Below are positions 13,801 through 44,585 of a DNA stretch of 64,000 nucleotides, piece by piece. The position numbers and the translations under genes are program-made. Numbering within the stretch: position 1 is the first letter of the stretch; every line of letters begins with the position of its first letter. Under the pieces are notes generated by a model. That model searched no databases. It saw only the letters and a list, made by a program, of their open reading frames with translations, and had not been told where the DNA came from. Source of the stretch: Trypanosoma brucei (Eukaryota); contig CH464491.1 in the NCBI GenBank assembly GCA_000002445.1, forward strand, positions 640,001 through 704,000, read 5' to 3'.

Positions 13801-13829
<29 letters not shown>
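13801..13829. repeat. (TA)14 microsatellite followed by a G11 run at 13866-13876
   Basis: Direct reading. Confidence 0.95.
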
Positions 13830-13833
<4 letters not shown>

Positions 13834-18483: not shown

Positions 18484-20344
18484 ACGCGTGCGTGCGTAAT
18501 TCACTCGCGTTATGTTCGCTTCGGTTCCGACGAAATTTCTGTCAGTTTGTTTGGTTGATGGTGAGGTGAGAGGTGGGATGAGTGTACCGAATGGAAGGTA
18601 AATAAAGTAAATGAATGGAGCAGACCATGGAAAACTTTCTGAGCGGCATTGCATGCTTGTTGCTCATTTTCTCCCACTCACCAGTCGCATCACCGTTATT
18701 TCTCATTATCACTCGCGATTTTGTATGATTCTTATTAACATTTTTCTGCGGAAGCGCAGACCTTTTACATACTGTGAATGAGTCAGTAGGGATTTGCATT
18801 GCGAACTCGCATGGCGCGGAGATGAGAAATGAATCACATCTTAAATATATAATGGCGAAGGATTATTTGGATGAATTTCGTTCTTTAGGCGGAGTGGGGG
18901 AAGCTTATTTGTCGTTGAAGTAAGGAAGCGGTGACGGTGAATGAACCTCAGGGCAATACCAGAAACATTCATTAATGTCTTTTCATGCATTTGCATCCCT
19001 TCAAATTATCCTCCTCCCTGTCGTTATTTGAGATCCTTTATTTGACACACTGCGTGCCAATGGTGGCTGTAGATACATCCATCTCGTAGTGAGGAGAACG
19101 CGATATTTAAAAAACTCTTTCGACGTAGCTGCAAATGCAGCGAGTAGTCAGGTGAGTGAAACATGTGCGTGAAAGACAGCGAGAGGCTCCAGGAGGTTAA
19201 ACAAGACCAAAAAAGAAAGGAATAGAGAAGGAAGTTTAAAGGAAAATAAAACAATGTGGATAACGGAATTTAAGGCTGATTATAGTGGTGTCTGCACATG
19301 AGGATTAAGGGCGGAGGCAAAGCGTGGGACTTGTGTTTTTGCAATGTTCCACTCACCTCTTTCACTTACCTATCCATTTCTCTTTTTTCATTTTTATTTC
19401 TTAAGCAGAGGATATAAATGTGAGGCCCACTACCAAATCACTTCCAACCACCTAAACCGTATACGACACAGAAGTTCACAATTTGTGGTTGGCGCTTTGA
19501 TCTGAAAGAAGGCGATTTATTATTGCCGTGGGGTGTGAGGGAATCGAGAGAAAAGGAAAAGAAAAAGCAGGAAAAGGAGGAGGAGAAATAGAAGGAGAAG
19601 GAGGGAGGGATTGAGTCTCTCCTTTAAGTGTGTAAGAGACTCTTCCCTCCCTTTTTTGATAACTATCACCGTATTATTCTCTGCTGCCTTTTGCTTTCAT
19701 ATTTAACGGTAAATGAATATTCCCCATTCTCTCCTCCGTCTTTGGATTCATTGTACTTTTTTTTAAAAAATTTCCCCCGCGACCGCGTGGTGCACGCCCG
19801 TACGCAACCCATTACTGTTGTTGGTGCTGTAATTTACATACCTACATGTGGATAACCAACACACGTATACTCGTATATATATATACATACATACATACCA
19901 GCGGTAACGGCAACAACGTGTGAAATCGTTACATTGTTAACGGCGTGTGCGTAGCGGCAGACGCAGTGCAGGAAGAGAGAAGAAAAAAAGGGGGAAAGGA
20001 AAAGGAAAGAAAAGGAAAAGAAAAGAAAAAGCAGCCTCCATTTCGAATCGGTGGAGCAACCGAAGTGTGAGTGCTGAAACGCTTTGCTACGGGCAAAGTG
20101 GAAGAAGAGAAGGAAGACAGATATAAATTAAAAGAAAAAAAAGGGAAGACACGTGCGTACATTTGTATTGTGAGGAGGGGAGGTACAAAAGAATAAGAAA
20201 TATAATAATCGAAAGGAAATAAATTGAGGATCTAAAGACAAAGATCTACTCAAGAAATCTTCTCTAAAAGAAAAAAGAAGAATAGAGAAAAAAGGAAAAG
20301 AATCCAAGGCGTCAATTAATAATAAGGTGAGTTTAAAGGGTTAA

Positions 20345-22072
20345 ATGCCCAACCCATACAGGAAAAACAAGGATACATCGCGTATACCGTGTGTCTACTT
20401 TAAAAGAGGGTCATGCGCGAACAAGCACTGCCCATTTCTTCATGTGCGTGGCGGTGAAAAAGTCGGACACGAACCTGGGAAAGCACCAGGGGATGTGGGG
20501 ACAAACCTTCTTTGTACGATGTTGAAGTTGGTGTTTGAGAAACAGCAGCAGCGGGTGTATAACGCGGAAACAGGGGTCTTGAACCTGACGCAGTTTAAGG
20601 AAATTCCTGACCTCACGGATGTGGCGGGATCCATCAACTTTAACACACAGGCTTTCTGCCAGGCATTGTGTTCGACAATAAAGTCGCTTATTGTGCCTCC
20701 TCCATCAGCAATTCAACTGAAAGGCAATGGCATATTGTCGGTGTCACATCTAGCGATGCAGTTGGAAAAGGCAGACCTTCATCTGACGCTTCGTGCCATT
20801 TCATTAGAAGCCAACCTAATCAAGTCGGTTGAGTCATTGCAAGAGTTGAAGAAATTCACCAACTTGCGGGAGATTGTACTGAGAGACAATCCTATCGCAA
20901 ATCGGAGCGACTATCGGACAACTATTAAGAAATTGATGCCGTCGTTAATTGGTTTAGATGGAGAGTCCATATGTGTGCCCCCTTTAAGTTTACCGTGGCC
21001 TCAGTTCTCTCCGACGGGATACAGTGAGGCGCAGAAGCATGTGCTGCAGTTCATACAATGCGGGTTGTTAAACCCACTGGAAGGCGACGGTGCTTCCGGA
21101 GTTGCACACGGTGTAGACGCTGTTTCGGACTTGTACGCGGCAAATGCGGTTTTGACCCTCTCCCTCTCTTCGCCAGAAGTTGCTGTAAGCACGCCCATGC
21201 GCACGATGAACGGTGCGGCGGGTGTGCCGCAACAGCGGAACGTAATCAGGGATATTGTGAGTCTTCGGTTAAAACAAACTGAAAGTAATCACAACCTTCT
21301 GCACGGTGTAAAGTCGACTGTTGTTGCGCTTGGTCGGACGAAGGTGTGTTCTCAGATGGAGCACTGGTTGTACCCAAAGACCTTTAGGGTTCATCATTAC
21401 CTCCATAGCAGCGCTAGCACCGTCTTTCTTGACAATTCGTACCTCACAGGCCCGTCGCCCACAGCGATGAAAGTACCCGTGACAATAGTGACACTCCATG
21501 GCACCATGACGTGGAACAACACCGGTGTACCGGGTGATGCGACAACTATTGGCCCAATGACCATTCGGCGCAACTTCACTCGTGTGTTAAGTGTTACACA
21601 AGGGGATGCGGGACGCTGGCTAATCACTAATGACATGGTGTCGTTGTATTTGACGCCGAGTGGGTCATCTGCATCGTCGAAAAGTGGCAACGGAGTGCCT
21701 GAAACGACTCAACTGAGCGAGTGCCGCATTCTGCTCGACCCACGCAGCGACCGTAGCCGTGCGGAGGTACTCAGCCGAAAGAAGGACGTACCGGTAGAGG
21801 TGATTATGGCATTGTGTCAACACGTTGGTAACGATGCGGAGTTATTTACCGTGTTGGATGATATCCGCGGCGTGCCACTCAGTGCCTTTGAACACTGTGC
21901 CAACCTAGCAGGGGAGAATATCATGGAAAGCATTCAGATGTGTCGTTTAGTGAATCTTTTCGGGATGGCACCACAAAATGCATTGGAGATGCTTAGGCAC
22001 AATAACGGTAACTGGAGTGATACTGTTGCTGCGGTTGCTGCTACCGCGCCTGTGGCGGCAGTCCCGCAGTGA
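20345..22072 (+). CDS. MEX67: mRNA export factor Mex67/NXF with N-terminal CCCH zinc finger
   Basis: N-terminal C-x7-C-x4-C-x3-H finger (CVYFKRGSCANKHCPFLH), followed by an LRR region (LREIVLRDNPI), an NTF2-like domain and a UBA-like C-terminus. The CCCH finger is the known peculiarity of kinetoplastid Mex67. Confidence 0.8.
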   Translation: MPNPYRKNKDTSRIPCVYFKRGSCANKHCPFLHVRGGEKVGHEPGKAPGDVGTNLLCTMLKLVFEKQQQRVYNAETGVLNLTQFKEIPDLTDVAGSINFNTQAFCQALCSTIKSLIVPPPSAIQLKGNGILSVSHLAMQLEKADLHLTLRAISLEANLIKSVESLQELKKFTNLREIVLRDNPIANRSDYRTTIKKLMPSLIGLDGESICVPPLSLPWPQFSPTGYSEAQKHVLQFIQCGLLNPLEGDGASGVAHGVDAVSDLYAANAVLTLSLSSPEVAVSTPMRTMNGAAGVPQQRNVIRDIVSLRLKQTESNHNLLHGVKSTVVALGRTKVCSQMEHWLYPKTFRVHHYLHSSASTVFLDNSYLTGPSPTAMKVPVTIVTLHGTMTWNNTGVPGDATTIGPMTIRRNFTRVLSVTQGDAGRWLITNDMVSLYLTPSGSSASSKSGNGVPETTQLSECRILLDPRSDRSRAEVLSRKKDVPVEVIMALCQHVGNDAELFTVLDDIRGVPLSAFEHCANLAGENIMESIQMCRLVNLFGMAPQNALEMLRHNNGNWSDTVAAVAATAPVAAVPQ

Positions 22073-27069: not shown

Positions 27070-27630
27070 GTGGAACTCAAGCGGAAATTTGACCTTCGTT
27101 TCATCGTGGCAGTAAATTCCTTTACGTCGGAGCATTCCTCCTCCATGGAGGCGTACGTCTATAACACTTTCTGGACTCGATTTGCGCTAAAGGAATATTC
27201 ACTCGACGATTTTGACTGCTACGAAAAGCACTGGACGGTTATGAATTACACCAACCCCGAGGCATTGCTTCAGTTGCATGACCATGACTTTGTGAAAGAG
27301 TTTAACGAGGAATATGCCTCGAGTGGTTACGGTGAAGCAGCATGGGAAAAAATTGCATATCCGAAGATTCTGAAAATGCTTCGTGAAGCATTTGGCATGG
27401 TGGTAACGAGGGGTGGGGATCACAGTCGATGCCGTGCGATGTATGGTGTGGATGTTATGCTACGGACGGAGCGCTGTGTTGAAACGGGCGCTTTGACACT
27501 TGAGCCTTCGTTACTCGAAATCACCTTCAGTCCGGACTGCCGTCGCGCCTGCAAATATCATCCAACGTTCTTCAATGACATTTTCCACACACTTTTCCTT
27601 AGGGATCCAACGAACATGACACCACTGTGA
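27070..27630 (+). pseudogene. Inverted partial duplicate of the 3' end (last ~184 codons) of the TTL gene at 41679-43619; gene fragment
   Basis: 100% amino-acid identity to the C-terminus of the 646-aa TTL (RKFDLRFIVAVNSFTSEHSS...TNMTPL). Nucleotide identity begins abruptly at 27079. An ATG (MELK) exists only in the unique junction sequence. Upstream sequence is unrelated to TTL. Confidence 0.65.
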
Positions 27631-27853
27631 GCTATTTCATTGGAAACATTTTTCTTCCATCATCATTTATGTTGCATGTGGATTTCCATCAGAACTTTGT
27701 CACAGAGTGGTGTTGCTTAACATCAATTTTGTGTGAACCCAGATATATATGCGTATGTATGTGAATGTGTGTGTTCCCTTATGCCTATGCTTCTACCCTT
27801 TTTCTTTTTCCTTTCAGTAATATCTCAGCTTTCAGGATTACAATCAATAAACA
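27079..27853. repeat. Outer inverted-repeat arm (left), ~99% identical to reverse complement of 41444-42230
   Basis: Direct comparison: coding part identical; the intergenic part shows one substitution and one small T-run indel. Confidence 0.85.
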
Positions 27854-28015
27854 AGCGGACAGAGAGGTGGCTCGGGAGGAAAGCCTTTGCGGACAGTGCG
27901 AATTTCTGATTTTCACGTAATCATTCTTCGGGGAGGGGGAGAGACTGTTATTTACTGTCTATATAAGCGTTGATCCCAAAGTAATAACAGTAAGAAACAT
28001 ATAAGATATATCATT

Positions 28016-28672
28016 ATGGGTTGTGGCGGTTCCAAACCTAACGCGGTAAGCAGAGATGTGGAGGAGAAGGCTCTGTATCTTCGTGGTATCAAAGAATCAA
28101 TCGATAAGGCAGAGGGAAACATGCTTGCCACTCTCCATGCCCTGCAGGCGTTGATGAGATCATATGAATCCACTTCATACTCATTTGTTGAGCTTGCACA
28201 CGGTACGGACGGCAATACATCATTGAAGGCGAAGACATTTGAGTCTGATATGCGGACACTAAAAGACAGTGGCATCATGCCGAAACTGCAAAAGGACCTC
28301 GGCCAGTCCGTCAGTTCCTTGGGAAAAGACATCAGGGCAAAACATGACAAAGCGAATGTGGTGTACAGAGAAATGACACAAGCCAATGACGCGTACTGCA
28401 AGTTGCGCGAGCGAGTTAACGGCATAGAGAAGAGTTACGCCAAAAAAAACAAGCCCGTAAGTGAGTGCCCTTCGTACACAAAGAATTGTAAGGAACGTGA
28501 CGTCTGCTTAGCCAGGTATGAAGGACTTAAAAAAGTTTTCCTGACGTTGGTGGAAGAGCTGAGGACTCTCATCCGTTCCTATGTGACTGCAGGGCTTACG
28601 CGATACGCCTTCTCTACTGCGGATTATGCGCAACAGTTGGTGAATAGTCTCCAGAAGTACAAATCCGAGTAA
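28016..28672 (+). CDS. Small dually acylated (MGCGGS N-myristoylation/palmitoylation motif) helical protein; possibly flabarin (flagellar BAR-like protein) family
   Basis: 218 aa with an N-terminal MGCGGSK (Gly2, Cys3) motif. Predicted all-helical/coiled-coil. Paralogous (about 45% identity) to the minus-strand ORF 40733-41401. Last gene of the plus-strand array. The flabarin assignment comes from recollection of a flabarin/flabarin-like pair next to TTL in T. brucei. Confidence 0.5.
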   Translation: MGCGGSKPNAVSRDVEEKALYLRGIKESIDKAEGNMLATLHALQALMRSYESTSYSFVELAHGTDGNTSLKAKTFESDMRTLKDSGIMPKLQKDLGQSVSSLGKDIRAKHDKANVVYREMTQANDAYCKLRERVNGIEKSYAKKNKPVSECPSYTKNCKERDVCLARYEGLKKVFLTLVEELRTLIRSYVTAGLTRYAFSTADYAQQLVNSLQKYKSE

Positions 28673-30011
28673 TTAGCGCAATGAGCAGAAACATGGACTT
28701 AAGATGCAGTTTTCAGACAGGCAATAAAAAGGGGGAAAGGGAAAAAGGTATACATTAAAAAAAAAAAGAGGAAAGGGGACGTGGGGACGGAAGAAACTGA
28801 TTTTATGTTCGGTTGGGATGGGCGGGTTCCATTCCAGTCCCCCCTAGTAGCGGTGAATTTTTTTTTTTTTTGGAGGAGGGGGGGGACGGGAAAATAAGTC
28901 GTTTAGGTGACAGGTGTGTGGACGAGCCGCCGTGCTTATCATTCACATTTTAAACACGGGTTCTGCCGCATTTAAGTTTCGTTTTGCTTCCGCTTTGGTG
29001 TTCTGAAGGTGATGTTTTTTTTTTCTTATATTTTGACTTATGCAATCGGGATCATTTCCTTTTTTGTTCTCGGTGTATGTGATTTTGTGTTTGGCTTCCT
29101 TTTTTTTTTTTTTTTTCTTTTTTTTTTTGGTGTTTCTTTTTCGAATATCTCTACCCCACTTTTTTTCTGTTTGACACATCGTTTAAGTTGGGCTGTGCGT
29201 TGATGATGAAAAATAGATGCTTACCGCTGCTCTTTCCGGTTTTTTTTTCAGCTCCAACGTTGCCGTTACTTGTTGTAGCATTTGTTCTATTATATTACTA
29301 GAGCTATGAATAGATAAGACATGGGAGTAATCTGCCTAATCTTTACTGTTTTGTTTTGTTTTGGTCCCTGAGTATTAGGCGTGCGTGTGTGCGTGCCCAC
29401 ATATGTATTTAAAAAAAAAAAATAGTAATGAAAGACCTACACCTGTTTGTTCCCTTTCCTCATTGTTTCCTCTTTTTTTTTTCTGAGGCACCTTACAAGG
29501 TTTATGCGAGGGGCAGGTTGTTCATTTCACACGAAAAATCGCTATTATATTAGTAAATAATGTTTGCTGTTTCCACCTCCTGGAAAAAAAAAAGGGAGGA
29601 AAAGATATATGTAACAAAATAAAGTAAGAAAATTAAAAAAAAAACAACCTTCCGAAAATACATACAGAACACGGAACATATCCGTCAGAGAGGAGCTCCA
29701 TTATTGGAACATTCTTTTTCTTGCTTTTTCGTTTATTGCAGTGCTGTTGTTCGACCGTTGCGAATAAAAGTGACTAAAAATATATTCTGTCTTCTTCCAA
29801 CATTTTTCTCGTCTTTCTTTTTTCATTCACATGGGGCACAACATGCTTTACCAACAGATGATATTTCGACGAATCAAAAGACAACAGCGCGTAAGGCACA
29901 TACAACGTTAAGGGCAAGAAAAAAAAAAGGGAGGGGGGGGGCGGAAAGTAAATAAATTGCGGCAGCATTAACCATTTAGCGGTTAAAAAGAAGGAAGTGA
30001 ATAATCAAAAA

Positions 30012-30036
30012 AATAATAATAATAATAATAATAATA
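30012..30036. repeat. (AAT)8 microsatellite; a similar (AAT)7 lies at 40105-40125 in the same orientation
   Basis: Direct reading. Confidence 0.9.
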
Positions 30037-30415
30037 AGTAAGGGGAATAAATATGGCATTGATATTAACAACAACAATAATATAATTATTAGTATTATTT
30101 GTGAGCCGCTGCGAAGCAGGTTTCTAAATATAAACTCGCCGTTTCCACGCCGAATTTTCACATGGTGCGCGGACTCATCCGAGGTGTACCCGTGAGGTGC
30201 GGTATTTGCCGTTTAAAACATCCCTCATGTTTCTTTCCCAACTCGTTAAAAAAAATATATATATATAGCCAATGGATTTGCGTAAACTTCTGCAGACATA
30301 TCGCTCACCGCCAAATAATACCGCGGTGCAATTTCTCATACACGTGACTTGTGCTGTCGGGGAAAAGACATTTTTTTATTTTTTTTTGCACACTTCGAAA
30401 AGAAAAAAAAATTTG

Positions 30416-32137
30416 CGTTACCCGCTACCGCCATTCACGGCGAGGAAGCTGAGTTTGCCAGAAGATCCGTTTTCTTATCCTTTTTATTTTCTTCCCCTTT
30501 TATGTAACTGTTGAAAAACTCATTGTGCCACCTTTGTTATTCTGCAGAACACCAATGCTTCATAAGTCGACTGGGACCTTTTAATTGCTTTTCGAAATAT
30601 GGTGACGTTTTGGTTTCGTTTGCAGCATTGGGGGAGTAGAATAATGGTCATTAACTGAGGGAAAGATGTTGACGCGCTTCTTATGTTCCCTTTGGGCGTA
30701 TACTGCATGGTGATGGGTTTCTTCTTGTTCCAACAACTTGGAGAGCTTTAGAACTCGTCGCACTAGCTTCAAAATTAATAAGTGCGTTTGTTTCCCTTAT
30801 CTGCGACTTTGTCCGCTAATTCATTTTCCTTCATGCCGCAACTAAAAAAAAAAACAAAAAAACAGTAAATTTTGATATCACCGCGTTGCTACTAATGAAC
30901 GTCGGAACTGACCACTATATAACACACACAAAAATATTCCATCTTCCACCCGATGTGGAAGATGCCTTAAGAGAAATAGTGCCTGCCAATGCCTGCGATG
31001 TTATCCACGACGAAGGTTTGTCCTTCATTATTTATTTATTTATTTTAGTAGCCTATTCAACCATACCCCCACCACCACCAATTCCGCACGATAGCTGCTG
31101 CCCAACCTCCCAGCGCCCCTATGCTGTTTTATCCTTTTTTCCCCACCCGATTAAGGCGATGGCGGTCACACCCGGCGAAATCCTTTTCTCAATCCACCTT
31201 CCCCTTTGCAATGTGTGGGTCCTCTTCCCGCCGTCCAGTTCGTTAGCCTTCAAGTCTTCCAGTGCAAATGTTTTGATATAAATTATTGGGATGGGAGGCT
31301 CACCATGTTTTCCTCACGGAAAGGGAAGCCAGTTATCCGTTTCGAACCGCCATCTTTCCGCTGAACTGAGCCGCTTGTGAAGTGTTTTTTTTTTTTGTTG
31401 CAGGGATATGGCCGCATCCACGTATCGGGAAACTGGCCCTCTTTGGCCCTGAGTGTTCCGCAATATTCGATCATCCCTTTGCGCACCACCTTCCCCGCAA
31501 ATTCCCCAGCCGCGGTTCTTCAGCTGTGCTTGCTTATTTGGGCCGAGTGGAAAACCACCCGGCACCTGCACCATAACATATTCTCATTCGAACGGGGCCC
31601 AAACAGAAGGTTCGCGGGGTTTTGCACCCTTGGTTCCTACTGAGCCGGCGCTGTCACCCTTCGTCTTCAGTAAACTTGCCTTTTCACACTAAGCCGTTTG
31701 TTTCGTGTGTTGCGATGTCACTTTTATTGATTGGGAAGCGGGTGCCAGAAGGTTTGGGGGTTTTGCTTCTCTTACCCGCCCCTTCCCGCCACCACGGGAT
31801 ACGGTGAGTTCCGAGCGCACACGCCAAGTGCCGTATAATGTTGCATTCCCCAGTTGCCGGTTCTGTGGCCCGCCCCTCTGACCGCTGGAAAACGTGGTTG
31901 AGTTGTCGCTGCAGTTAATTTTCAGAGACTTCTACATTCCCGCAAGTGCATTCGATTACTTTTTTTCTTTTGTTAATCGGTGTGCTATTCGGCAATGTTG
32001 GTCAGTGAGAGCCCTTTGGCAAAGAAGATAGGGGCAATCCCAGGGCAGGTATGCGCCGTATGGAATTACACTAATCGTCGCAAGTTTCAACGATAACATT
32101 ATCAAGAATTATGAACTGAGAACCAACTTTGTATATT
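30416..32137. repeat. Inner inverted-repeat arm (left), 1.72 kb, ~99% identical to reverse complement of 37741-39462
   Basis: Mirror-image ORF pairs in the six-frame track (30886-31281+ vs 38597-38992-; 31622-31807+ vs 38071-38256-; 30581-30772- vs 39106-39297+). Nucleotide comparison shows only scattered substitutions and homopolymer-length differences. Confidence 0.9.
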
Positions 32138-32167
32138 TTGGAGGTGCGCAGGCAACGTTGAGTGAAT

Positions 32168-32179
32168 TATTCAGGGGAA
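32168..32179. repeat. Target-site duplication (TATTCAGGGGAA), 3' side of ingi
   Basis: Identical 12-mer at 37434-37445 immediately flanking the other end of the element. Confidence 0.8.
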
Positions 32180-32452
32180 TTTTTTTTTTTTGGAATTTTC
32201 TTCGTGCCTTCGTGGGAGTTTCCCCCCACTGGCGCGGCCATCAGCCATCACCGTAGAGCCCTGAGATGCTATCGGTCTGGCGACTGTGGCAGAGTCTCCC
32301 TTTTTTATTCATCCTAACACTCCCTCTATAATTTTTGTTGTAGCTCCGCAGTTGAACGGAATACAGCAGATGGGGCAAGAGGCCCCCCACTCCGGACTCT
32401 CCAAAAGATGTCAATTAGCAATCCTTTTGTTTTGATTTTTGTTATTCGTTTA

Positions 32453-34162
32453 TTATTCTCTCCCCCTCTTTCTGTTTCTGTTGCTTGTTGACTGCATACC
32501 TCCTCTGTCTCTGAGGGTGTCTGGACTATTCCTGCGTCCGGTGCTTTTCCTGCTGGCTCCACACTCGGCAATAAGGGGGGAAGTTGCAGAAGGGAGAGTG
32601 GGTTGTATGACTGTTACCTTAGGTGAGGACTTCACCTGTGGCCGGCTCCGTTCAACCGCAATGAGAAACTGCGCCAGCCTTTTGGAGAAACATACATCCT
32701 GCACACACACACCTTCTACCGCAAACCTGACACGTAACTCCTTCAAACCGGGACAGCTCATCAAGTGCAGCGACGTTTCTTCGCAGTCGCCGCGTTGGCT
32801 GGTAACAGCGCGCTCTACCTTCATACCGTGCATCTTCTTTTGATGTAGGGTGAGGCCAGTTTTGCTAGCACACTGCCTTCCGCATGTCGGGCACACCAAC
32901 ATGGATGCTTTTGTATGCGGGGAATCAGTGGCACAAAATTTTGTGCTTTTGCTGCATTTAAGCTCGACTCCCTCACCTTTGTGGAAAGCCTTGCAGTGTC
33001 GGATGAGGGAGTCCCTGCAACTGAGCACTTTTTGGCACACACCACACTGCACCTCGCCTTTCCCCGGGACGTCAACGTTTCCCTCACGGGCACGCTTACG
33101 AGGGAATTGCACCAACACCACGGTACCGTCCTCCGTCACTATGCTTTTATGTTTGAATTTCTTGTGTAGTGTCAGGGAAGAACGTGTACCGAAGCTCGCC
33201 TCGCACAGGTCACATTGAAACGGCAGCTTCCGTGTATCCTGAGAGGCTGGCGCTGCTGGGGCTCTACCATCTCCTTGCAATGAGTCCTCGTTCTCTCGCC
33301 CCCTTTTCACGCGGCAACTACCGCTGCCTATGCCATGTATTGTTCTAAGGTGGTGTAGTAGTCGGCCTGGCACTGCGAATTTGGAGGCACAGATGGTACA
33401 ATGAAGCACCTGCGGTCTCATCGGGACTCGTGTGCTCGATGGTAGAGGAACGATCGCCACCACTGGAGGGGGCTCCGGGGGGATATCCACTGCAGGTGTT
33501 GCATCGCCGTATTTGATCCTCCGGAGGGCATCAGCTCGCACAAAGCCATGTTTGTTTACCATGTGCGTTACAGCACTCGAGCGGCATTGGTATGTGGCAT
33601 CACATTCCGTACATTTGGTCGGTTCGGAGGTTCTCTGAAGAGTGCGTGTCGCAACAGTTGGGGCCGTTTGTATTGTTGGCCCTATCGCTGCATGTTGCGG
33701 GTTACACCATCGGCACTGTGGAGGCACACTCGGGTTGATCTTTCGCAACATCCATCCATAGTGTCTTGAAGACCCAACCCGAAAGCGTGCCAGTGCCGTT
33801 TCTTCTTCCCTCGTCAGTTCTTCTTTATGTTTTGTTGGAAAGTGGTTGCCCGTGATACCAAACCTATGAGTGTTCTCATGGACTTCTTCCGACCTAAGCA
33901 CTCGCTTCGCATAAGCAATGATGTCGGGGATCCATGTATCTCGCAACTGTGGTAAATCTGCGGCCTTTTTGGCCATTTCATCGCAAACCTCATTCCGTTT
34001 CACGCCACAATGGCCAAACACAAATTGCAGTCGGATACGTATCTTCCTTCTCTGAACTTGAAGCAGAAGCCTCCATAGTCGTCTTAGAATTGGGTCCGTT
34101 ACGGCTAGGGGGCCTGTCTGCAGTGCTGTTAACATTGATAGAGAGTCAGAGAAGATGGACAA
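32453..34162 (-). pseudogene. ingi ORF, 3' portion (RNase H remainder and C2H2 zinc-finger domain), different frame from the 5' portion
   Basis: C2H2 fingers (CTICASKFAVPGRLLHHLRTIHG; CDLCEASFGTRSSLTLHKKFKH; CGVCQKVLSCRDSLIRHCKAFH; CPTCGRQCASKTGLTLHQKKMH). The frame differs from 34288-37425 by +1. Confidence 0.8.
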
Positions 34163-34287
34163 CCTGCTCGGTGTGCTTCTGTATGCCAGAAGCCATTTCA
34201 GCAGCCGTTGCAGTCCTATCTCTAATGCTACGCATTCCGCTCTGTAACTGCATGAGAGTTCCCCTGCTCCGGTCTTGGGTGCACAAA

Positions 34288-37200
34288 TCAGCGCTTGTTT
34301 CTATAGAGCAGGGCAGCTGCTCCGGACTTCTCACCGAGGGACACGGATCCATCAGTCCACAATTCGTAGTGCTCTCGCCGCGGTGGCTCCTTCCCCCTCC
34401 GTGCAAAATGCCGTGCAATCCACTTTTCGGAAGCCTCCCTTTTGACATCGTCAGGGTCATCAGCGCACACAGGCTTTATCTGCGTGTGAAATAGTGGTCG
34501 GCAGCTGTGGCGGAGCGTCGATGTCTCTAGTGGGTGCTCGCGTGGCTCAATGCGGAGGTGGGGGTAGAACCGCATGATGCGGGAATGTGAGGCTCTGTCT
34601 GGGTGTTTGCTGTGGTATACTTCTTCAGCACTGCGCCGCAAACATCCGCCTCGTGACTCACACATCAGCATGAATTTCATGCTGCGCACAAGAGTGGTCG
34701 TCTTGAGTGGCAGGAGGTTTGCTTCCAGCAGAGAGTCCTCTTTGCGTGTCCCATGGGGTATGCCAGCTATGATGCAACTGGCTTTGTGTTGTGCTGCTGC
34801 AAGGAGATCGCGACTTCGTTCCGAAGCGTCCCAGTACCATACCTCAATGCCATACATGGTGTGTGCCTGTACGAGTGCTAGATAAAAAGCTCTCAGCACT
34901 TGTCGTCTTGGCCCCCATGTAGAAGCTGAGATGGCTGCTATCTGCAGTAGTCTGAAGTCCATCTTGCGTCTCGTTTCGGTCGTATGTGTTGCCATCCCTT
35001 GCAGACACTGGAATGTTACTCCTAGAAGCTTCGGTGTCCTGTCAGCTCCTATTCTTTCGCCGTCCAGTTGTAATGTAAGGGGGTGGCGCTCTATACACCC
35101 GAAGAGTTTGCACTTTGTTTTCGCTACGTTGACAGACATGAAATACTCTTTTGACCACTGTAACACCACGTTGAGACCGCATTGTAGTGTGTGGTTGATG
35201 ACATCCCTCTCGGTGTGCCTCGCAAGTAGCGTTAGGTCGTCTGCAAAGAATCCGTGCTGCAGTAACGGCACTTCTACAAGCCGCTGGCTCAACGAGTTCA
35301 TGACAATAATGAACATGATTGGGCCAAGGACAGTTCCTTGTGGCACTCCTCGCTCAAATGTTCTGCTTCTGGAAAGCTTCTCCTTGAATCTCACTCTGCC
35401 AGTTCGGTTACTCAGAAATGATACGCACCACTTCACAATGTGGGGTGATACCTTCATTCTGTGCATTTCCCTCGCAATTCTGTTGTGTTCTACTGTATCA
35501 AATGCCTTCTCGTAGTCAACGAATATAGCACCCGTACGAGATTGGTGCGTGGGACGGCAGAGGGCAGCGCGGACGTGCAGGAGTTGTTCGAGCGTTGAGC
35601 ATCCGCGGCGAAAGCCTGATTGCTGCGCCGTCAGCTGGGACTCAACAGTGTCTCTAAGCCTCGTGGCAATTATGCGCTCCATGACTTTGCATAGACAGCT
35701 CGTGAGCGTCACAGGCCTGTAAGAATCGAGGTCCTCCGCCTTTTTTCCGGCCTTCAGGATGGGGATGATAACACCAATCTTCCATGCAGGCGGCACGACT
35801 CCCGTTCGTAGGCTCTCATTGAATAGCCTCAGAACAACATTCAGCGCTGTTCTGCCGAGGTGTTGTAGTGCCTCGTTGTGTAAGCAATCAGGTCCGGCTG
35901 CGGATCCACTCGGTAGCAGTTTGATCGATCTCCGTAGTTCAGCCATCGTGATGGGACTGAACTCACTCGCTATCGTCTTTATTGGTGCCGGTGGGTGTGA
36001 GTCGGGGTGTCTTCTTGCGCGGGACGAGTACAGTTTAATGAACCTCTCAGCTTGACAGTAGTCCGTGATGGCCGCGTTATCAACAAGTACAGCCGGTGTG
36101 GTTAGTGGTCGTGGCGCATATACCTTCTTGACAATGTGCCAACTGCAGCGGTCTGACACCGCAAGTCTGGAGCATAGCGTGCTCCATCTCTTCTTTGTGG
36201 TACGGTCCAGGATCTGCTTACGCGTGGCTACCAACTTTTCCCTTCGGTGGGAGGGTCCGCATCCAGCGATCTCTTCATCGAGTTTCGCGAGCTCAGGTGT
36301 CCAATGTGGTGGCGTTGCTCTGCAGCCACGGGGGACGGAGACCTTCGTCGCAATGCGGATGGCGGAGCTCAATTTCTGTTCCAGGGTGTTGACGTTCTTC
36401 TCTCTACCAATTTTCCTGCAGAGCTCGTCAACCTTGAGACGGAAATTCCTCCAGTTAGCTTTTAGCCATGCGTACATGGGCTTTCGAAGCCGCGGGCAAC
36501 TCAGTGCATCTGTGTCGTCTCCAACGATAACGTCGAAAAATATGTGATGGTGATCGCTATCGGGAGAATACAGCGATGTCCACGTGTACACTGTGCAATT
36601 CCTTGACAGTGTCACATCAGGGGTGGACTCCCCGTGGTGGCGCGCGTACCTGGTGCACTCACCAGTGTTGCAGACCAGAAACTGGTTGTCAATGCACCAC
36701 TGTGTGAGGGTTTCACCCTTGGTATTTGGTGGGCTCGCGCGATCCCATGCCAACGCGTGTGCGTTAGCGTCTGCACCGATGAGCTGGGCACCGTCAGTCG
36801 TCAGAAGCGTATCTAGGTCAGTTGCCGTGAAGGTGTGTTTTGGTGGGATGTATGCCGACGTGACAGTCAGCGCCGTTCCACGTGCAAGGTGAATTGTTGC
36901 ATGCACTTGTTCAATGCGACCAATAACGGCCATACCGGTCTCGACTGGTAGGTCCTCCCTCACTAGTATTGATACACCACCTCCTTTGCAGTTACGAGCT
37001 ATTCCGTAATGTTGGTAGCCAGCAACGCTAAAGCAAGCCGCCTCTCCAGGCGTCATCCTTGTCTCGCTCAACAGACAAAAGGCGATCCGCTCATCAACAA
37101 GGGTTTTGTGGAGTGCTAATCTCTTTCCTTGAGATAGCCCGACGCAGTTCCACTGCATCCCGCGCAACGACGGGCCGGGATTCTCTTCCACATCACCGGA

Positions 37201-37425
37201 CAGCAGCATCTTAGTGCGGATGATACTGCTGATGGCACGCTGGCACGTGCCCAGGGACCGACAAATGAAAGACGGTGTCCCAGCAAGACGCTGCTGATCC
37301 CTGTGCTGTATGATGCCGTAGCCGGAGCACAGCAGTGTTCCCCATGAAAGGAACGCTGCTGGCTCTTGGCTTCCCCCGATGATACGGGGTACTGGACCCT
37401 GGCACCACGTTGAGGTGGCCGGCAT
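34288..37425 (-). pseudogene. ingi ORF, 5' portion (2A peptide, APE-like endonuclease, reverse transcriptase, start of RNase H); frame broken near 34162-34288
   Basis: ATG at element position 9. RT motifs (VTLTSCLCKVMERII; FVDYEKAFDTV; FFADDLTLLA). RNase H DGS motif at the C-terminal end (ELWTDGSVSLGEKSGAAALLY). Confidence 0.8.
37161..37184 (-). other. 2A-like co-translational 'self-cleaving' peptide motif (DVEENPGP) near the N-terminus of the ingi ORF
   Basis: Translation SGDVEENPG|PS, the canonical D-x-E-x-NPGP 2A signature. Confidence 0.75.
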
Positions 37426-37433
37426 CGCCAGGG

Positions 37434-37445
37434 TATTCAGGGGAA
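37434..37445. repeat. Target-site duplication (TATTCAGGGGAA), 5' side of ingi
   Basis: See 32168-32179. Confidence 0.8.
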
Positions 37446-37740
37446 CTGCGCCCGCAGAAAATAATACACACAAATGGGAACTGCCCGGTCTTGGCAGAAG
37501 AACTTAAACACTTCCCGCTATCACTTTAAATACTGCGAGCCACGCTGTCACAACGAGACAACGGGGGCTCCAACCCAAACGATCCAGGGCCGGAGTTACC
37601 GCGCAATTGATTGGTGTAATAAACGGGGGAGGGCCAACCAGAGGAGGCAGCGGTAATATTTACTAAATGCAAAATGGTATTAATCCAGTGGGTCATTGAT
37701 GCGGCATTGCGGCGCTAAAGGGCTGCGCAGCGGGCCCCTT

Positions 37741-39462
37741 AATATACAAAGTTGGTTCTCAGTTCATAATTCTTGATAATGTTATCGTTGAAACTTGCGA
37801 CGATTAGTGTAATTCCATACGGCGCATACCTGCCCTGGGATTGCCCCTATCTTCTTTGCCAAAGGGCTCTCACTGACCAACATTGCCGAATAGCACACCG
37901 ATTAACAAAAGAAAAAAAGTAATCGAATGCACTTGCGGGAATGTAGAAGTCTCTGAAAATTAACTGCAGCGACAACTCAACCACGTTTTCCAGCGGTCAG
38001 AGGGGCGGGCCACAGAACCGGCAACTGGGGAATGCAACATTATACGGCACTTGGCGTGTGCGCTCGGAACTCACCGTATCCCGTGGTGGCGGGAAGGGGC
38101 GGGTAAGAGAAGCAAAACCCCCAAACCTTCTGGCACCCGCTTCCCAATCAATAAAAGTGACATCGCAACACACGAAACAAACGGCTTAGTGTGAAAAGGC
38201 AAGTTTACTGAAGACGAAGGGTGACAGCGCCGGCTCAGTAGGAACCAAGGGTGCAAAACCCCGCGAACCTTCTGTTTGGGCCCCGTTCGAATGAGAATAT
38301 GTTATGGTGCAGGTGCCGGGTGGTTTTCCACTCGGCCCAAATAAGCAAGCACAGCTGAAGAACCGCGGCTGGGGAATTTGCGGGGAAGGTGGTGCGCAAA
38401 GGGATGATCGAATATTGCGGAACACTCGGGGCCAAAGAGGGCCAGTTTCCCGATACGTGGATGCGGCCATATCCCTGCAACAACAAAAAAAAACACTTCA
38501 CAAGCGGCCCAGTTCAGCGGAAAGATGGCGGTTCGAAACGGACAACTGGCTTCCCTTTCCGTGAGGAAAACATGGTGAGCCTCCCATCCCAATAATTTAT
38601 ATCAAAACATTTGCACTGGAAGACTTGAAGGCTAACGAACTGGACGGCGGGAAGAGGACCCACACATTGCAAAGGGGAAGGTGGATTGGGAAAAGGATTT
38701 CGCTGGGTGTGACCGCCATCGCCTTAATCGGGTGGGGAAAAAAGGATAAAACAGCATAGGGGCGCTGGGAGGTTGGGCAGCAGCTATCGTGCGGAATTGG
38801 TGGTGGTGGGGGTATGGTTGAATAGGCTACTAAAATAAATAAATAAATAATGAAGGACAAACCTTCGTCGTGGATAACATCGCAGGCATTGGCAGGCACT
38901 ATTTCTCTTAAGGCATCTTCCACATCGGGTGGAAGATGGAATATTTTTGTGTGTGTTATATAGTGGTCAGTTCCGACGTTCATTAGTAGCAACGCGGTGA
39001 TATCAAAATTTACTGTTTTTTTGTTTTTTTTTTTAGTTGCGGCATGGAGGAAAATGAATTAGCGGACGAAGTCGCAGATAAGAGAAACAAACGCACTTAT
39101 TAATTTTGAAGCTAGTGCGACGAGTTCTAAAGCTCTCCAAGTTGTTGGAACAAGAAGAAACCCATCACCATGCAGTATACGCCCAAAGGGAACATAAGAA
39201 GCGCGTCAACATCTTTCCCTCAGTTAATGACCATTATCCTACTCCCCCAATGTTGCAAACGAAACCAAAACGTCACCATATTTCGAAAAGCAATTAAAAG
39301 GTCCCAGTCGCCTTATGAAGCATTGGTGTTCTGCAGAATAACAAAGGTGGCACAATGAGTTTTTCAACAGTTACATAAAAGGGGAAGAAAATAAAAAGGA
39401 TAAGAAAACGGATCTTCTGGCAAACTCAGCTTCCTCGCCGTGAATGGCGGTAGCGGGTAACG
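37741..39462. repeat. Inner inverted-repeat arm (right)
   Basis: Reverse complement of 30416-32137 at ~99% identity. Confidence 0.9.
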
Positions 39463-40732
39463 TCATGTATAACTATAAAAAAATATATGAAATGTCAATA
39501 CTTTTTGTAATCCCTATGTCTCCTCCTCGTGCTGTTGCCCGCCAAAAAGTGATACTCTTTCATTAGAGTGCGTCAATTACCTTAAAGTGTCGCTCAATCT
39601 GCAATTCCCTATATTCAGTGGGAAAGGCGAAGGAAAGTAATGTTGCTTCTATGCTTCACTTGCCGGCACCGATGTGCAGTTGCTACTAGAGACAAAAAGA
39701 AATCCCCCTACTACGCTAAATAGAGAAGAACCAAGCAGAGAACGAAACCAGAAAGGAGGGTTCATTGGATAGAACGAAGCAAATATACGGAACAAAGAAT
39801 GAAATTTTTAAAAAAGGTGAAACTTTGTTGTTGGTGTTGATCATCACTCATTCATTTACCTCACTATTCGGTTGTCCTCCAGTGTTTCGGCCGCATGGCT
39901 CCTCATGAAGAAACAACCTGACAGGAAGGTTAAGTTCAACAAAATGCCCCTGTCACAAGCGTTTGGGGGGCAATGAGGTGACGTTTTATTACAAAAGTAA
40001 AAAAGAATTCTGACGCTCATTACAGAAATACGAAACAAAATTTAATGCCACCGTTTGTACTTACTGGAAATGTGGTGCGCACTTTGTGCTGCGGCCTTTA
40101 AAAAAATAATAATAATAATAATAATCAAGTAAACAGAAAATAGTATCGATCGTGGGAGGGAAAAAGGTATCAGAGCGAATGCACGGGCGACTATATATGT
40201 ATACAAATTCATATAAGCATATATATATGTGCACCTTCTGCCTCTAATGCATTTAAGTTCATGCATGGGTTTAGAAAGGAACGACGACAGAGGAGTGAAT
40301 ATTCTCACGATACATATGCGTATGCCTCCTCCGCAAACAGTTCCCCTTTCCCCATTTCTTATCTTCGATTTCTGCGTCGAAGTTGCTTTACCCCTGCTGA
40401 AACAATTCGAGTAAAGAACAAACAGTATCACACACAAAAAAAGTAAAAGAGTAAAAGATACATTTTAAAACAAAACAGTGAAGACAAAAAAAGCTTTCTA
40501 ACGCTAACAAAACTGAAGAAAGAAACTCCTGAGGGATATTGGTCAATCCTCCCTATTTGCGGTATTTTTTTTTCTCCCTACTTATATTTATTTACGCTCC
40601 ACTTTCTTTCTTTTCTCCCCGCCTCGCCAAGGAAACCTGCAACTACAGATCAGTTTGAAATATTTTAATTTCACATTCCTCGTTCCGCACGTTGTGGGGT
40701 TCCTACCTCTTTTTCGTTGACGCGCCCATGCG

Positions 40733-41401
40733 TTACGTCGAACTCGGAACAACTTTAAACTTCGCGAGCTCAGTGGCCATTTGCTGGGCAACAATGGCGC
40801 TGCACGCCGCATATTTTGGTAGTGCCGACCCAATGAATACCGGAATGAGACTCGCAAGTTGTTTAATCTCCGCGTTGAGAGTTTTCTTGGCCTGATCATA
40901 CTTTGCGAAGGCGGCATCACGGTCCTTGGATTCTTTTATGAACGATTTACTTTCCGTGAGGGGTTTGTCCTTCTTTGCGTAACTCTTCTCAGTTTCCTCC
41001 ACGTTATACTTGTGTTTGTCGTATGCGTGCCTGAGGGCCACGGCATTGTTGTAAAGTCGCATAACCTTTTCCTGCTGTATTTTGATGGGACGACCTGCTT
41101 CCTTCACATTGGTTACGAAGTCTTGCTGCAGGGTCGAAAGCATCGGGCCAATCTTAAGTTTCCGCACTTCCCCTTCGAAACTCACTGCCAACGAAGCCGC
41201 TTGCCCATCCGTGCCGTGTGCGAACTCCACAAATGATTGCGATGTGTTCTCATACGCCTTTATCAAGGACTGGAACGCCTGAGTTGTGGCGGTGACATTC
41301 ACCTCAAATTTTTCTATCACCTTCCCCAGACCTCGGATATACGCTCCCTTGTCGTCGAGATCCTTATCAACTGTTTCGGGGATGTTGCTGCAGCAGGGCA
41401 T
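40733..41401 (-). CDS. Flabarin-like paralogue of 28016-28672 (N-terminus MPCCSN: Gly2 lost, Cys3/Cys4 retained)
   Basis: 222 aa, collinear with the plus-strand paralogue (FVEFAHGTDGQ / FVELAHGTDGN; EKSYAKKDKP / EKSYAKKNKP). Last gene of the minus-strand array. Confidence 0.5.
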   Translation of the reverse strand: MPCCSNIPETVDKDLDDKGAYIRGLGKVIEKFEVNVTATTQAFQSLIKAYENTSQSFVEFAHGTDGQAASLAVSFEGEVRKLKIGPMLSTLQQDFVTNVKEAGRPIKIQQEKVMRLYNNAVALRHAYDKHKYNVEETEKSYAKKDKPLTESKSFIKESKDRDAAFAKYDQAKKTLNAEIKQLASLIPVFIGSALPKYAACSAIVAQQMATELAKFKVVPSST

Positions 41402-41443
41402 AATTGCTCCTTTTCTTCTCTGTCTTGCTTACCGTGTCTTGCT

Positions 41444-42230
41444 TCTCGACAATGTTTATTGATTGTAATCCTGAAAGCTGAGATATTACTGAAAGGAAAA
41501 GAAAAAAAAAGGGTAGAAGCATAGGCATAAGGGAACACACACATTCACATACATACGCATATATATCTGGGTTCACACAAAACTGATGTTAAGCAACACC
41601 ACTCTGTGACAAAGTTCTGATGGAAATCCACATGCAACATAAATGATGATGGAAGAAAAATGTTTCCAATGAAATAGCTCACAGTGGTGTCATGTTCGTT
41701 GGATCCCTAAGGAAAAGTGTGTGGAAAATATCATTGAAGAACGTTGGATGATATTTGCAGGCGCGACGGCAGTCCGGACTGAAGGTGATTTCGAGTAACG
41801 AAGGCTCAAGTGTCAAAGCGCCCGTTTCAACACAGCGCTCCGTCCGTAGCATAACATCCACACCATACATCGCACGGCATCGACTGTGATCCCCACCCCT
41901 CGTTACCACCATGCCAAATGCTTCACGAAGCATTTTCAGAATCTTCGGATATGCAATTTTTTCCCATGCTGCTTCACCGTAACCACTCGAGGCATATTCC
42001 TCGTTAAACTCTTTCACAAAGTCATGGTCATGCAACTGAAGCAATGCCTCGGGGTTGGTGTAATTCATAACCGTCCAGTGCTTTTCGTAGCAGTCAAAAT
42101 CGTCGAGTGAATATTCCTTTAGCGCAAATCGAGTCCAGAAAGTGTTATAGACGTACGCCTCCATGGAGGAGGAATGCTCCGACGTAAAGGAATTTACTGC
42201 CACGATGAAACGAAGGTCAAATTTCCGCTT
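41444..42230. repeat. Outer inverted-repeat arm (right), covering the TTL 3' coding end plus about 280 bp downstream
   Basis: Reverse complement of 27079-27853. Confidence 0.85.
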
Positions 42231-43619
42231 GCGCAGCGTCGCTGTGTTGGCGATATACTTACAGATTACCTTAGGTCCTGTTTCCACGGCTCTCAGCAGT
42301 TCAGTGAGGTTGGACGAAAGCGTCATGTCGATGCTTCGTGCCAAATTGGTGGGTTTGCTAATCCATAAATTTGTCCCGTCGTTGCTGCGCAACTTGCCGA
42401 TATCCTCATAGGTAACCAATGGGTCTGTATCAATCTTCTTGTCTAATGCGGCCTTGCGCACGATGAAGTCACCAATTAGTTCCTTTAGCTGTGTCGTCGA
42501 ATCGTAACTTGTTTGATACCAGTCGACGTAACCATAGGTCTCCTGAATTAGTCGTAACAGCCCCTGTTTACTTGTGAACTCAGACTCCTCAGGGAACTGC
42601 GAAATATATTGTGCGTGCCCATAGTCGTTTAAACCCTCGATAGAATGGTGAACAACCCATACGATGTGCGCTTCCTGCGGCAGATCGACCACCACAAAGT
42701 GATTCGCATCAGTGAGATTTTGTGAAAGCTGTTGACTGTCCGTGAAAACACGGAGCGGGCCACTCGGACACCTCTCCACCGGCGCTAGCGCACTCTGTTC
42801 CCGTTGGGCACGTCTTCCAGGAACGCTTTCCAAACGTTTCACCAGACGTCGCCACGCTTCTACGCAAAGAAGTTGGGCGGAGCGGTAGGGATCTTCTTCT
42901 GTTTCTTCCTCGTGTCGTGTGTTGTATATAAGCGACAGTATTTCCTTCCCGCTTGTCGCTTCGAGCGTTGATGCCGCCCGCCTCGTGGCAACTTCTTCCT
43001 CTTCCATGTCCTCTACGCACCACATCGCTGAGAACACACCGCCCTTTTCCGGGAAACAAATGGGTATCGGTTCCAACTTCATATTCGCTTTCTCATTCAC
43101 TACTGTTGTTATGGCGCTGCCCACTTCGTCATGGATAAACCAGTAGCTTTCGTACTGGGAATCATCTCCGTCCGCCGATGTCGGAAGGCGATACGAACCC
43201 ACCTTGTTCCACATGTGGTCAAATATCAGTTGCGCTCCATGTCTGTTATCGGCGCCCGAAAGGTTCACGGCCAAAACACGACCCAACCGCGTGCGGAGGG
43301 CCTCATTTGCTTCCAGATGAGCGCGAAAATCTCGCAGGCGGAAGGTACAGCAGTGATCAATAAGCCAAATATCGTCATTAGCCTTTAGATTCTTACTCGC
43401 CACAAGAACATAGTTACCAGCAGTTTCCGAGGACTGGTCCTCCGCGTCGACTTCATCCTCGTCCTCACGCGCTACAACCGCCAGCGAGAAAGAGGTTCCA
43501 GCGTCAAAGACGTCATTGACCAACTTTTCAAATAACGACCGCTGCAAGTGCTGAGGCACGCTGTGAACGACGAACCAGTCCGCTAGGACTCTCGAGAATG
43601 CTTCAAAGTCTTTCATCAT
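41679..43619 (-). CDS. TTL: Tubulin-tyrosine-ligase-like protein (TTL/TTLL family ATP-grasp)
   Basis: 646 aa. The C-terminal ~350 aa have the TTL-type ATP-grasp signature layout (ICKYIANTATLRKRKFDLRFIVAV...; GGDHSRCRAMYGVDVMLRTE). The N-terminal extension is unique. Confidence 0.65.
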   Translation of the reverse strand: MMKDFEAFSRVLADWFVVHSVPQHLQRSLFEKLVNDVFDAGTSFSLAVVAREDEDEVDAEDQSSETAGNYVLVASKNLKANDDIWLIDHCCTFRLRDFRAHLEANEALRTRLGRVLAVNLSGADNRHGAQLIFDHMWNKVGSYRLPTSADGDDSQYESYWFIHDEVGSAITTVVNEKANMKLEPIPICFPEKGGVFSAMWCVEDMEEEEVATRRAASTLEATSGKEILSLIYNTRHEEETEEDPYRSAQLLCVEAWRRLVKRLESVPGRRAQREQSALAPVERCPSGPLRVFTDSQQLSQNLTDANHFVVVDLPQEAHIVWVVHHSIEGLNDYGHAQYISQFPEESEFTSKQGLLRLIQETYGYVDWYQTSYDSTTQLKELIGDFIVRKAALDKKIDTDPLVTYEDIGKLRSNDGTNLWISKPTNLARSIDMTLSSNLTELLRAVETGPKVICKYIANTATLRKRKFDLRFIVAVNSFTSEHSSSMEAYVYNTFWTRFALKEYSLDDFDCYEKHWTVMNYTNPEALLQLHDHDFVKEFNEEYASSGYGEAAWEKIAYPKILKMLREAFGMVVTRGGDHSRCRAMYGVDVMLRTERCVETGALTLEPSLLEITFSPDCRRACKYHPTFFNDIFHTLFLRDPTNMTPL

Positions 43620-44585
43620 TTGTAAAACTGGTTATTGTTCGCGTTATTGCCCTGGTAGCCGGCTTATGAAACCGACCCTCAGTTGGCACCTCTAAGGATA
43701 GTAACCGATTGCCAGCCGCCTTTCTTTAGCTTCAAACTTCCACCGAAAACCACCGTTCCGCAGCTTGCTCAATGGTTTCGGTGCACCTGGGAGAGAAACA
43801 TAACAGATAGGGAAACAAGGGAAAAGGTCGGGTTTGGCGTGTAACCTCAAATGTTGGGACTCATTGTTACTGGCGCAAACGCAAAGGAGAAGATGAGCCT
43901 GCGGTCCCCTTTATGCATCAAAAAGTGCGAGGGAGAATACGCACCCCCCGTCACAGGATATACGAATGGGTGCCGACTACAACCACTTGGAGCAGGCTAC
44001 CGTACGGCGTCCCGCAACGGTGACTCTCCGGCCGTGATAAAAAAGTGGCAGCAATAACAATTGTTTCATCACCTACATCGAAAAGGATGGCACTGCCACC
44101 AAGGCACCGATTACCAACCCGATGTGCTCATGCACATAGAGGGGAAGTGCACAAAATTTAAAAAGCAACGACAACAACGAATGAGGCGCAGGAAGATGTA
44201 AGTGCAATCGAAAATACTTTATAAGGTGACACACCAGAAACATTTGTTCGAATGGGTGCCATGCCATGGCTTCATTTCAACTTGTTTCTACCTTTCTTAT
44301 CAGTAGGATTGATATATACTTCTTTCAATGAAGTATGTACATATATTTCTTCGATTCTTTGATTTCTCTATTCTGGAGTTGGATAAAACAGATGCTACTG
44401 TTATATGTACCTTCCTTTCACTCAACTTACTAGCTGTTACCGTTTTTCTTTTTAGTTTCCCATCTTTACATTATTTTCTGTCGCTCGTACTTTCAGTACC
44501 CACGCACTTCTTCTACCGCAAATAATGTGGTGATCCCAGTGTTACTCACCGCCAGCTTTCCGCTGCTGCTACCCCACTCATTCCA

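Follow-up and report, generated by a model that had tools for sequence, protein, structure and literature searches.

Ingi elements of Trypanosoma brucei (Tbingi) are retrotransposons that lack long terminal repeats (non-LTR elements) and belong to the ingi/L1Tc clade, and ingi is the textbook long interspersed nuclear element (LINE) of this species. Such an element is expected to be ~5.25 kb long with a 3' poly(A) (PMC3447711, PMC2323293) and to be flanked by a 12-bp target-site duplication (TSD; PMC3820030). In the architecture given in PMC3447711, the ingi termini correspond to two RIME halves, and a potentially functional 5.25-kb copy has a 4,971-nucleotide (nt) open reading frame (ORF) for 1,657 amino acids (aa). 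The 2A-like sequences of ingi have been reported to be active (PMC3708506). This work concerns a single Tbingi copy at positions 672,180 to 677,433 of chromosome 11 of T. brucei TREU927. It lies on the minus strand of a 64,000-nt stretch (contig CH464491.1, positions 640,001 to 704,000 of the forward strand), referred to below as the window; coordinates given without another label are those of the window.

The relatives of Tbingi resemble the window element to different degrees. TbRIME, the 0.5-kb non-autonomous partner of ingi, shares with it the 5' signature, the 3' end, the 12-bp TSD, and the target signature (PMC2323293, PMC3820030) but lacks the central 4.7 kb, whereas the window element retains the full coding region. 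L1Tc of T. cruzi, also a member of the ingi clade, has a single ORF with 2A, AP endonuclease, reverse transcriptase (RT), RNase H, and C2H2 modules, as well as the 5' Pr77 sequence and the 12-bp TSD (PMC1874656, PMC4035085, PMC3820030). However, it comes from another species, belongs to another subclade (its subclade is placed inconsistently within PMC3820030), and has a different upstream target signature. TbDIRE and TbSIDER have the 5' signature and ancestry in common with ingi but are extinct and heavily degenerate, with many stops (PMC3820030, PMC4748587), unlike the window copy, which has one lesion and at least 94% protein identity to annotated ingi proteins. Tcoingi and Tvingi show the same domain order but are only ~40% identical to the window protein (42% identity over 66% of the query and 39% over 75%) and represent other subclades with another target signature. 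Compared with Tbingi itself, no difference is seen at the family level: the window copy has a length of 5.25 kb, the 77- to 79-nt 5' signature, an ORF that starts at nt 9 and comprises 1,657 codons once 1 nt is restored, an N-terminal 2A-like peptide, the APE (AP endonuclease), RT, RNase H, and C2H2 regions, a poly(A) tail, and a 12-bp TSD (PMC3447711, PMC3820030, PMC3708506). It stands apart only by a CA-to-G frameshift and 28 private residues.

The evidence presented below makes it highly probable that target-primed reverse transcription (TPRT) put this full-length Tbingi between the arms of an inverted repeat that already existed, in its short spacer and within a convergent strand-switch region. 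Direct reading and scripts place the element between the two TSD copies at 32180-37433 (5,254 bp, minus strand), with the following ends.

37446..37467, minus strand: putative endonuclease recognition region, 22 nt upstream of the TSD in element orientation, a partial match to the ingi4 signature
37434..37445: TSD copy at the 5' end of the element, from direct reading
37357..37433, minus strand: 5' ingi-clade signature of 77 to 79 nt (the Pr77 hallmark), with CCACC and a CGTG motif at +25 to +28
32192..32452, minus strand: ingi 3' untranslated region (UTR), aligned to the L011 copy
32180..32191, minus strand: pure A12 tail (T12 on the plus strand), from direct reading
32168..32179: TSD copy at the poly(A) end, TATTCAGGGGAA on the plus strand; present as a single 12-mer at the empty site of L007/L006 and L001/L005

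The 12-mer TATTCAGGGGAA is found twice, at 32168-32179 and 37434-37445, identical at 12 of 12 positions; the chance of such identity at fixed positions is ~4^-12. Re-reading thus reproduces the length of 5,254 bp, the A12 tail, the conserved 5' start, and the identical duplication reported in an initial annotation of this DNA, and the duplication held at every position. The element begins with CCCTGGCGATGCCGGCCACCTCAACGTGGTGCCAGGGTCCAGTACCCCGTATCATCGGGGGAAGCC, and its CCACC...CGTG core (described for Pr77 in PMC4748587) lies at +16 to +28. Against an independent full-length copy on chromosome CM010675 of T. b. equiperdum IVM-t1 (the L011 copy), 75 of the 77 nt of the 5' signature are identical, and the noncoding tail (element nt 4982-5254, A12 included) shows 14 mismatches in 273 nt. 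The 3' UTR region would correspond to the 3' RIME half of PMC3447711. No second ingi or RIME copy is present in the window, and no RIME was found in the window or in any fetched locus.

Pr77 acts as an internal promoter in the wider family and, in L1Tc, also as a hepatitis delta virus (HDV)-like ribozyme (PMC1874656, PMC4035085, PMC4748587). Both activities have been demonstrated for L1Tc, while those of T. brucei LINEs have only been cited as unpublished (PMC4035085). A search of the window for a 5' ribozyme of the HDV-like type gave 0 Rfam hits at gathering thresholds, although Rfam may lack a model of the L1Tc type, and a permissive Rfam scan (E up to 10, positions 37200-37500) returned just chance-level matches to unrelated families.

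Evidence for an insertion comes from orthologous loci of three other genomes, retrieved by exact-protein look-up of the two genes that flank the strand-switch region. The expected empty-allele junction is ...GAATTATTCAGGGGAA joined to CTGCGCCCGC. In IVM-t1 (L007), window positions 30416-32179 align to 11937-13699 and positions 37434-44000 align to 13688-20249, and what the two alignments have in common is exactly the 12-mer; L006, which is this region in reverse, gives the same result. The site reads ...GAGTGAATTATTCAGGGGAACTGCGCCCGCAG..., with one TATTCAGGGGAA and no element. T. b. gambiense DAL972 (L001/L005) has the same empty site with a single TATTCAGGGGAA, in a spacer of opposite orientation and with an N gap 255 nt away. 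The contig of T. equiperdum OVI (L008) breaks 28 nt into the ingi/RIME 5' end, at a junction identical to the base with that of TREU927. The TSD-flanked empty site, which the initial annotation had suggested looking for in other strains, is therefore found in two assemblies.

Because the site is filled in TREU927 (with the 5' end in OVI) and empty in DAL972 and IVM-t1, the insertion is young and polymorphic within Trypanozoon. The copy had been proposed to be either young or recently converted from an active master. The empty sites bear out its youth, while conversion is not needed, since the presence/absence polymorphism explains the good preservation. TREU927 is a Kenyan strain. Strains of the OVI type trace back to East African T. 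brucei, and IVM-t1 clusters with evansi type B from West/Central Africa (PMC8549356); geographically, this fits a single event in an East African lineage. Presence/absence differences of ingi between T. b. brucei and T. b. gambiense are known from elsewhere in the genome (PMC2854126).

The spacer that received the element is bounded by the following inner arms.

30416..32137: left inner arm of the inverted repeat (context)
37741..39462: right inner arm, 99.3% complementary to the left arm over 1,722 nt

Positions 27078-27853 and 41453-42231 form an outer pair of arms. Once the element and one TSD copy are taken away, the spacer of TREU927 measures 337 nt, with the target at nt 31-42; in IVM-t1 and DAL972 the spacer measures 306 nt, and the target is 17-28 nt from one arm. 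The element therefore sits inside the spacer, as initially described, but not exactly in its center, as the target adjoins one arm. The palindrome is older than the insertion, because it is present without the element in IVM-t1 and DAL972. Long ORFs run on the plus strand up to 28672 and on the minus strand from 40733. This places the element in a convergent strand-switch region, where it is oriented in sense with respect to the gene cluster on the right. The "transcription termination zone" of the initial annotation reflects this convergent gene orientation only. A tRNA scan found none, and the strand-switch region has no landmark in the form of a tRNA-type terminator; there is also no Rfam feature in the window.

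The coding region comprises two frames. Domains were identified by Pfam searches with the conceptually joined protein, and short motifs by pattern scan.

34291..37425, minus strand: ORF piece A, 1,045 codons from the ATG, with the 2A-like peptide, AP endonuclease, RT, and N-terminal part of RNase H
37171..37194, minus strand: 2A-like ribosome-skipping motif DVEENPGP, aa 78-85 (pattern scan)
36541..37158, minus strand: AP-endonuclease-like domain, aa 90-295, Exo_endo_phos/Exo_endo_phos_2 (Pfam)
35014..35739, minus strand: reverse transcriptase RVT_1, aa 563-804, with the FADD box at aa 727 (Pfam and pattern scan)
33959..34371, minus strand: RNase_H, aa 1019-1156, across the frame break (Pfam)
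34294..34295, minus strand: sole frame-breaking lesion, compound CA to G, net -1 nt (DNA alignment to L011 and protein alignment)
32453..34288, minus strand: ORF piece B, 611 codons and a stop, in the -1 frame relative to piece A, with the C-terminal part of RNase H and the zinc-finger region
32828..33613, minus strand: five C2H2-type motifs CX2CX12HX4H, aa 1272-1533 of the repaired ORF (pattern scan)

The start ATG is located at element nt 9 (window 37425). Piece A ends at a TGA at 34290-34288, and the -1 frame is open from 34288 to a stop at 32455-32453, with no other stop. From the ATG to the final sense codon there are 4,970 nt, exactly 1 nt below the published 4,971 nt, in line with the ~1,650 codons that had been estimated for this copy. 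The ORF start at nt 9 and the 2A, AP endonuclease, RT, and RNase H regions are likewise as first described, whereas the pattern scan counts five C2H2-type motifs instead of four; a Pfam match to zf-C2H2_4 covers aa 1403-1426. The catalytic-type motifs SETR, GADANAH, SDHH, FADD, WTDGS, and FSDS were all found by pattern scan. The 2A-like peptide, sited just before the APE domain (which starts at aa 90), fits the ingi pattern D(V/I)ExNPGP and is a predicted ribosome-skipping motif.

The initial annotation had placed a single frame break between 34162 and 34288. Alignments show that the break is indeed single but falls at 34294/34295, 6 nt outside that interval. At this site the window copy has AACAA-GCGCTG (AACAAGCGCTG), whereas the L011 copy has AACAACACGCTG. 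The change converts ...LLYRNNTLICAPK... to ...LLYRNKR followed by a stop, with a shift of frame after it, and the window LICAPK continues in the next frame; 7 other copies read LLYR(N/S)NTLICAPK at the join in the protein alignment. The position of the lesion is bracketed by a TAG at ~34304-34302 in the frame of piece B and by the TGA at 34290-34288 in the frame of piece A. In a comparison with 11 other copies, no further frameshifts or stops are seen in the window copy, and the many additional lesions that the first reading might have missed are not there. Programmed frameshifting was considered and rejected because other copies read across the site in a single frame.

With its net loss of 1 nt, the CA-to-G change leads to an in-frame TGA after codon 1045 in place of an uninterrupted ORF of 1,657 codons; therefore, the full 1,657-aa protein would not be made, and the window copy is probably not autonomous. 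Its best product would be an N-terminal peptide released by 2A and an APE/RT protein truncated early in RNase H, with the remainder of RNase H and the zinc-finger region presumably lost. The exact 1,045-aa product was not found in the protein collection by exact look-up.

A search with the full-length protein gave no T. brucei ingi protein, and the best matches outside T. brucei, from T. congolense and T. vivax, are ~40% identical. A search with the C-terminal 560 aa retrieved a 60-member cluster of ingi-derived proteins from IVM-t1 and DAL972. The joined window ORF is 92 to 97% identical at the aa level to 15 annotated proteins of these two genomes; where the identity to ingi proteins is 94 to 97%, the junction placeholder is the sole indel. 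Specifically, an annotated 1,656-aa ingi ORF of IVM-t1 (P0045) shows 95.8% identity, and an 801-aa protein spans the join without a gap. The L011 copy is 96.0% identical to the window copy at the nt level over 5,251 nt. The differences fall at codon positions 1, 2, and 3 in a ratio of 48/46/93, and the ratio of nonsynonymous to synonymous differences (pN/pS) is ~0.35. This codon-position skew, together with the pN/pS ratio, indicates that most of the ~4% divergence between copies arose under selection in active lineages and not by decay in place. The testable defining features of Tbingi are all found in the window copy, apart from the continuity of the ORF (one break), and the target signature matches in part; the element belongs to the ingi4 subclade in the nomenclature of Bringaud.

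The L011 copy (4513-9767, CM010675.1) is the second full-length ingi in this comparison. It is found beside a VSG gene, has an A9 tail, and differs from the window copy by six indels, and its TSD, as read by eye, has decayed to 8/12, so that it offers the contrast of an older copy.

The ingi4 target signature, AxxxxxxxTxxxGTxGGxTxxx^xTxTxxTxxxxx, has the first-strand cut just upstream of the 12-nt TSD (PMC3820030). Over the 34 nt of the recognition region and TSD, 6 of the 10 specified positions match (P = 0.024; 2.4% of window positions match as well or better), which is weakly consistent with the "relative" site specificity. By this scheme, the AP-type endonuclease of ingi would have nicked the window plus strand between GGGGAA (32179) and CTGCGC (now 37446), after TATTCAGGGGAA. 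The freed 3'-OH would then have primed reverse transcription of a polyadenylated ingi RNA, giving the GGGGAA|T12 junction at 32179/32180, and a second nick, in the other strand and 12 nt away, would account for the 12-bp duplication. The order and positions of the nicks are those expected from the TPRT model and the ingi4 cleavage scheme, and the direction of change is probably insertion rather than excision. The insertion would have taken place during Trypanozoon diversification. Its source would be a lineage of elements still under purifying selection, and the CA-to-G change in the RNase H region may have been acquired since or copied along.

Several observations weigh against this interpretation. 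Agreement with the insertion-site signature is no more than moderate. The base call of the frameshift comes from the TREU927 reference sequence alone, and the 28 residues private to the window copy among the copies compared could have an effect on its domains. With just 28 nt to go by in OVI, a RIME could be present there instead of an ingi. In DAL972, the gap lies close to the empty site (at the 255 nt given above), and that assembly is ordered on the TREU927 scaffold; the IVM-t1 chromosomes were likewise built with the TREU927 reference. However, a precise empty site with a single TSD copy cannot come from an assembler without reads that span it. Finally, after correction for a coordinate offset of 524,930 nt, as the published dataset implies, the locus matches none of the 7 siRNA-producing inverted repeats and none of the chromosome-11 convergent units listed in PMC3447711.

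The frameshift might be an error of Sanger-era sequencing or assembly, or a change in one haplotype, in which case the copy would encode the full 1,657 aa and could be a potentially autonomous recent master. A single lesion, a perfect TSD, and a pure A12 would suit such a copy, as would the young, polymorphic insertion and the retention of all six catalytic-type motifs, and assemblies are error-prone at repeats. However, a compound CA-to-G change is unlike a homopolymer-length miscall, chromosome 11 of TREU927 is finished sequence, and the absence of the 1,045-aa product from the protein collection suggests that annotators saw a pseudogene, all of which makes an error improbable. A misassembly that placed a repeat into the TREU927 palindrome spacer deserves mention since palindromes and dispersed repeats are classic sources of such artifacts, but it can be regarded as extremely improbable: a misjoin does not produce an exact 12-bp TSD at both junctions, the independent OVI assembly has the same 5' junction to the base, and an independent published survey places the copy at the same coordinates.

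The element could also be ancestral, with the empty sites generated by precise loss between the 12-bp TSDs and the filled copy preserved by gene conversion from active copies. Ectopic conversion of ingi is plausible in a genome that homogenizes its repeats, as the palindrome arms are 99 to 100% identical, and with four genomes only, parsimony alone cannot polarize the change. Yet precise excision of a 5.2-kb non-LTR element via 12-bp repeats is rare and would be needed either separately in two lineages of West/Central Africa or once in an ancestor that they share, while the filled state is limited to East-African-derived genomes. In addition, the TSDs are identical at 12/12 positions and the tail is pure, in contrast to the older L011 copy with its six indels and its TSD of 8/12 (by eye). 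Ancestral presence is accordingly very improbable, and insertion by TPRT into the spacer of an existing palindrome is the preferred explanation. An extended version of it is a doubtful, quite improbable proposition: the copy would be a very recent, East African-restricted product of a still active ingi master, and could itself be live and autonomous if the CA-to-G change were erroneous or heterozygous. That it landed 17-30 nt from the arm of a long palindrome might mean that the ingi endonuclease favors extruded or loop DNA, and the insertion might alter the output of double-stranded RNA and small interfering RNA as well as termination at this locus.

The palindrome itself differs between strains. 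In TREU927, the inverted repeat (27078-32137 and 37741-42231) is composite, with near-identical arm segments of 1,722 nt (inner) and 779 nt (outer). The arms flank mirrored, diverged paralogues, a 218-aa ORF at 28016-28672 on the plus strand and a 222-aa BAR-like ORF at 40733-41401 on the minus strand, which are 38% identical. In IVM-t1 (L007 9175-18476), the 222-aa version is found on both sides, and the arms are ~4.5 kb long and 100% complementary. Since the composition of the arms differs between TREU927 and IVM-t1, the extent of arm homogenization by gene conversion varies by strain. The 306-nt spacer of DAL972 (L001 14141-14446) is flipped relative to TREU927 and IVM-t1 (window 32138-32179 and 37446-37740), which could result from recombination between the arms or from a choice made in the assembly, where an N gap lies at L001 14685-14828. 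At the inner end of the left arm (32137-32146), TREU927 has TTTGGAGG, whereas IVM-t1 and DAL972 have TAAGGGGCCCGC, which continues the palindrome; this cluster of substitutions and deletions is found 25-40 nt from the ingi poly(A) junction.

The ORFs flanking the element match chromosome-11 proteins of TREU927 exactly and include a PGK-like protein (EAN79210), MEX67 paralogues, a TTLL12-like protein, and a dynein heavy chain. The outer left arm (27078-27853) contains a 161-aa ORF (EAN79211 / CBH17147), a duplicate of the C-terminal portion of the TTLL12-like gene that the other arm carries at 41679-43619. Annotations of the 222-aa BAR-like ORF exist for DAL972, IVM-t1, and OVI, with no TREU927 accession among the matches listed; the original TREU927 record, in which the neighboring accessions EAN79212 and EAN79213 are consecutive, may lack an annotation for it. 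The MEX67 paralogue at 20345-22072 has 575 aa here and in T. equiperdum versus 517 aa in TREU927/DAL972, owing to a different choice of start codon.

This exact copy is already catalogued, and its family and position are known: Supplement 1 of PMC4660242 has an entry labelled "Complete INGI" for chromosome 11 (672181-677433, minus strand), and the 100-nt upstream flank of the catalogued copy is identical to the reverse complement of window positions 37434-37533. The same table has 90 "Complete INGI" labels for TREU927, with at least this copy entered twice. The ingi/RIME elements show very low divergence and include several potentially active copies (PMC2323293). The statement in the initial annotation that most ingi copies are heavily degenerate is not supported, in view of this low divergence, the 90 catalogue labels, and the 1,656-aa P0045 ORF. 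The heavily degenerate elements are the separate DIRE/SIDER families, whereas full-length, little-diverged ingi copies are common.

With ingi being the textbook LINE of T. brucei, the importance of this copy is small. The additions to what is known of it are modest: its polymorphic status, a lesion pinned to 2 nt, a palindrome that predates the insertion, and the differences of that palindrome between strains. The copy could be used to mark lineages and would testify to ingi activity during the Trypanozoon radiation.

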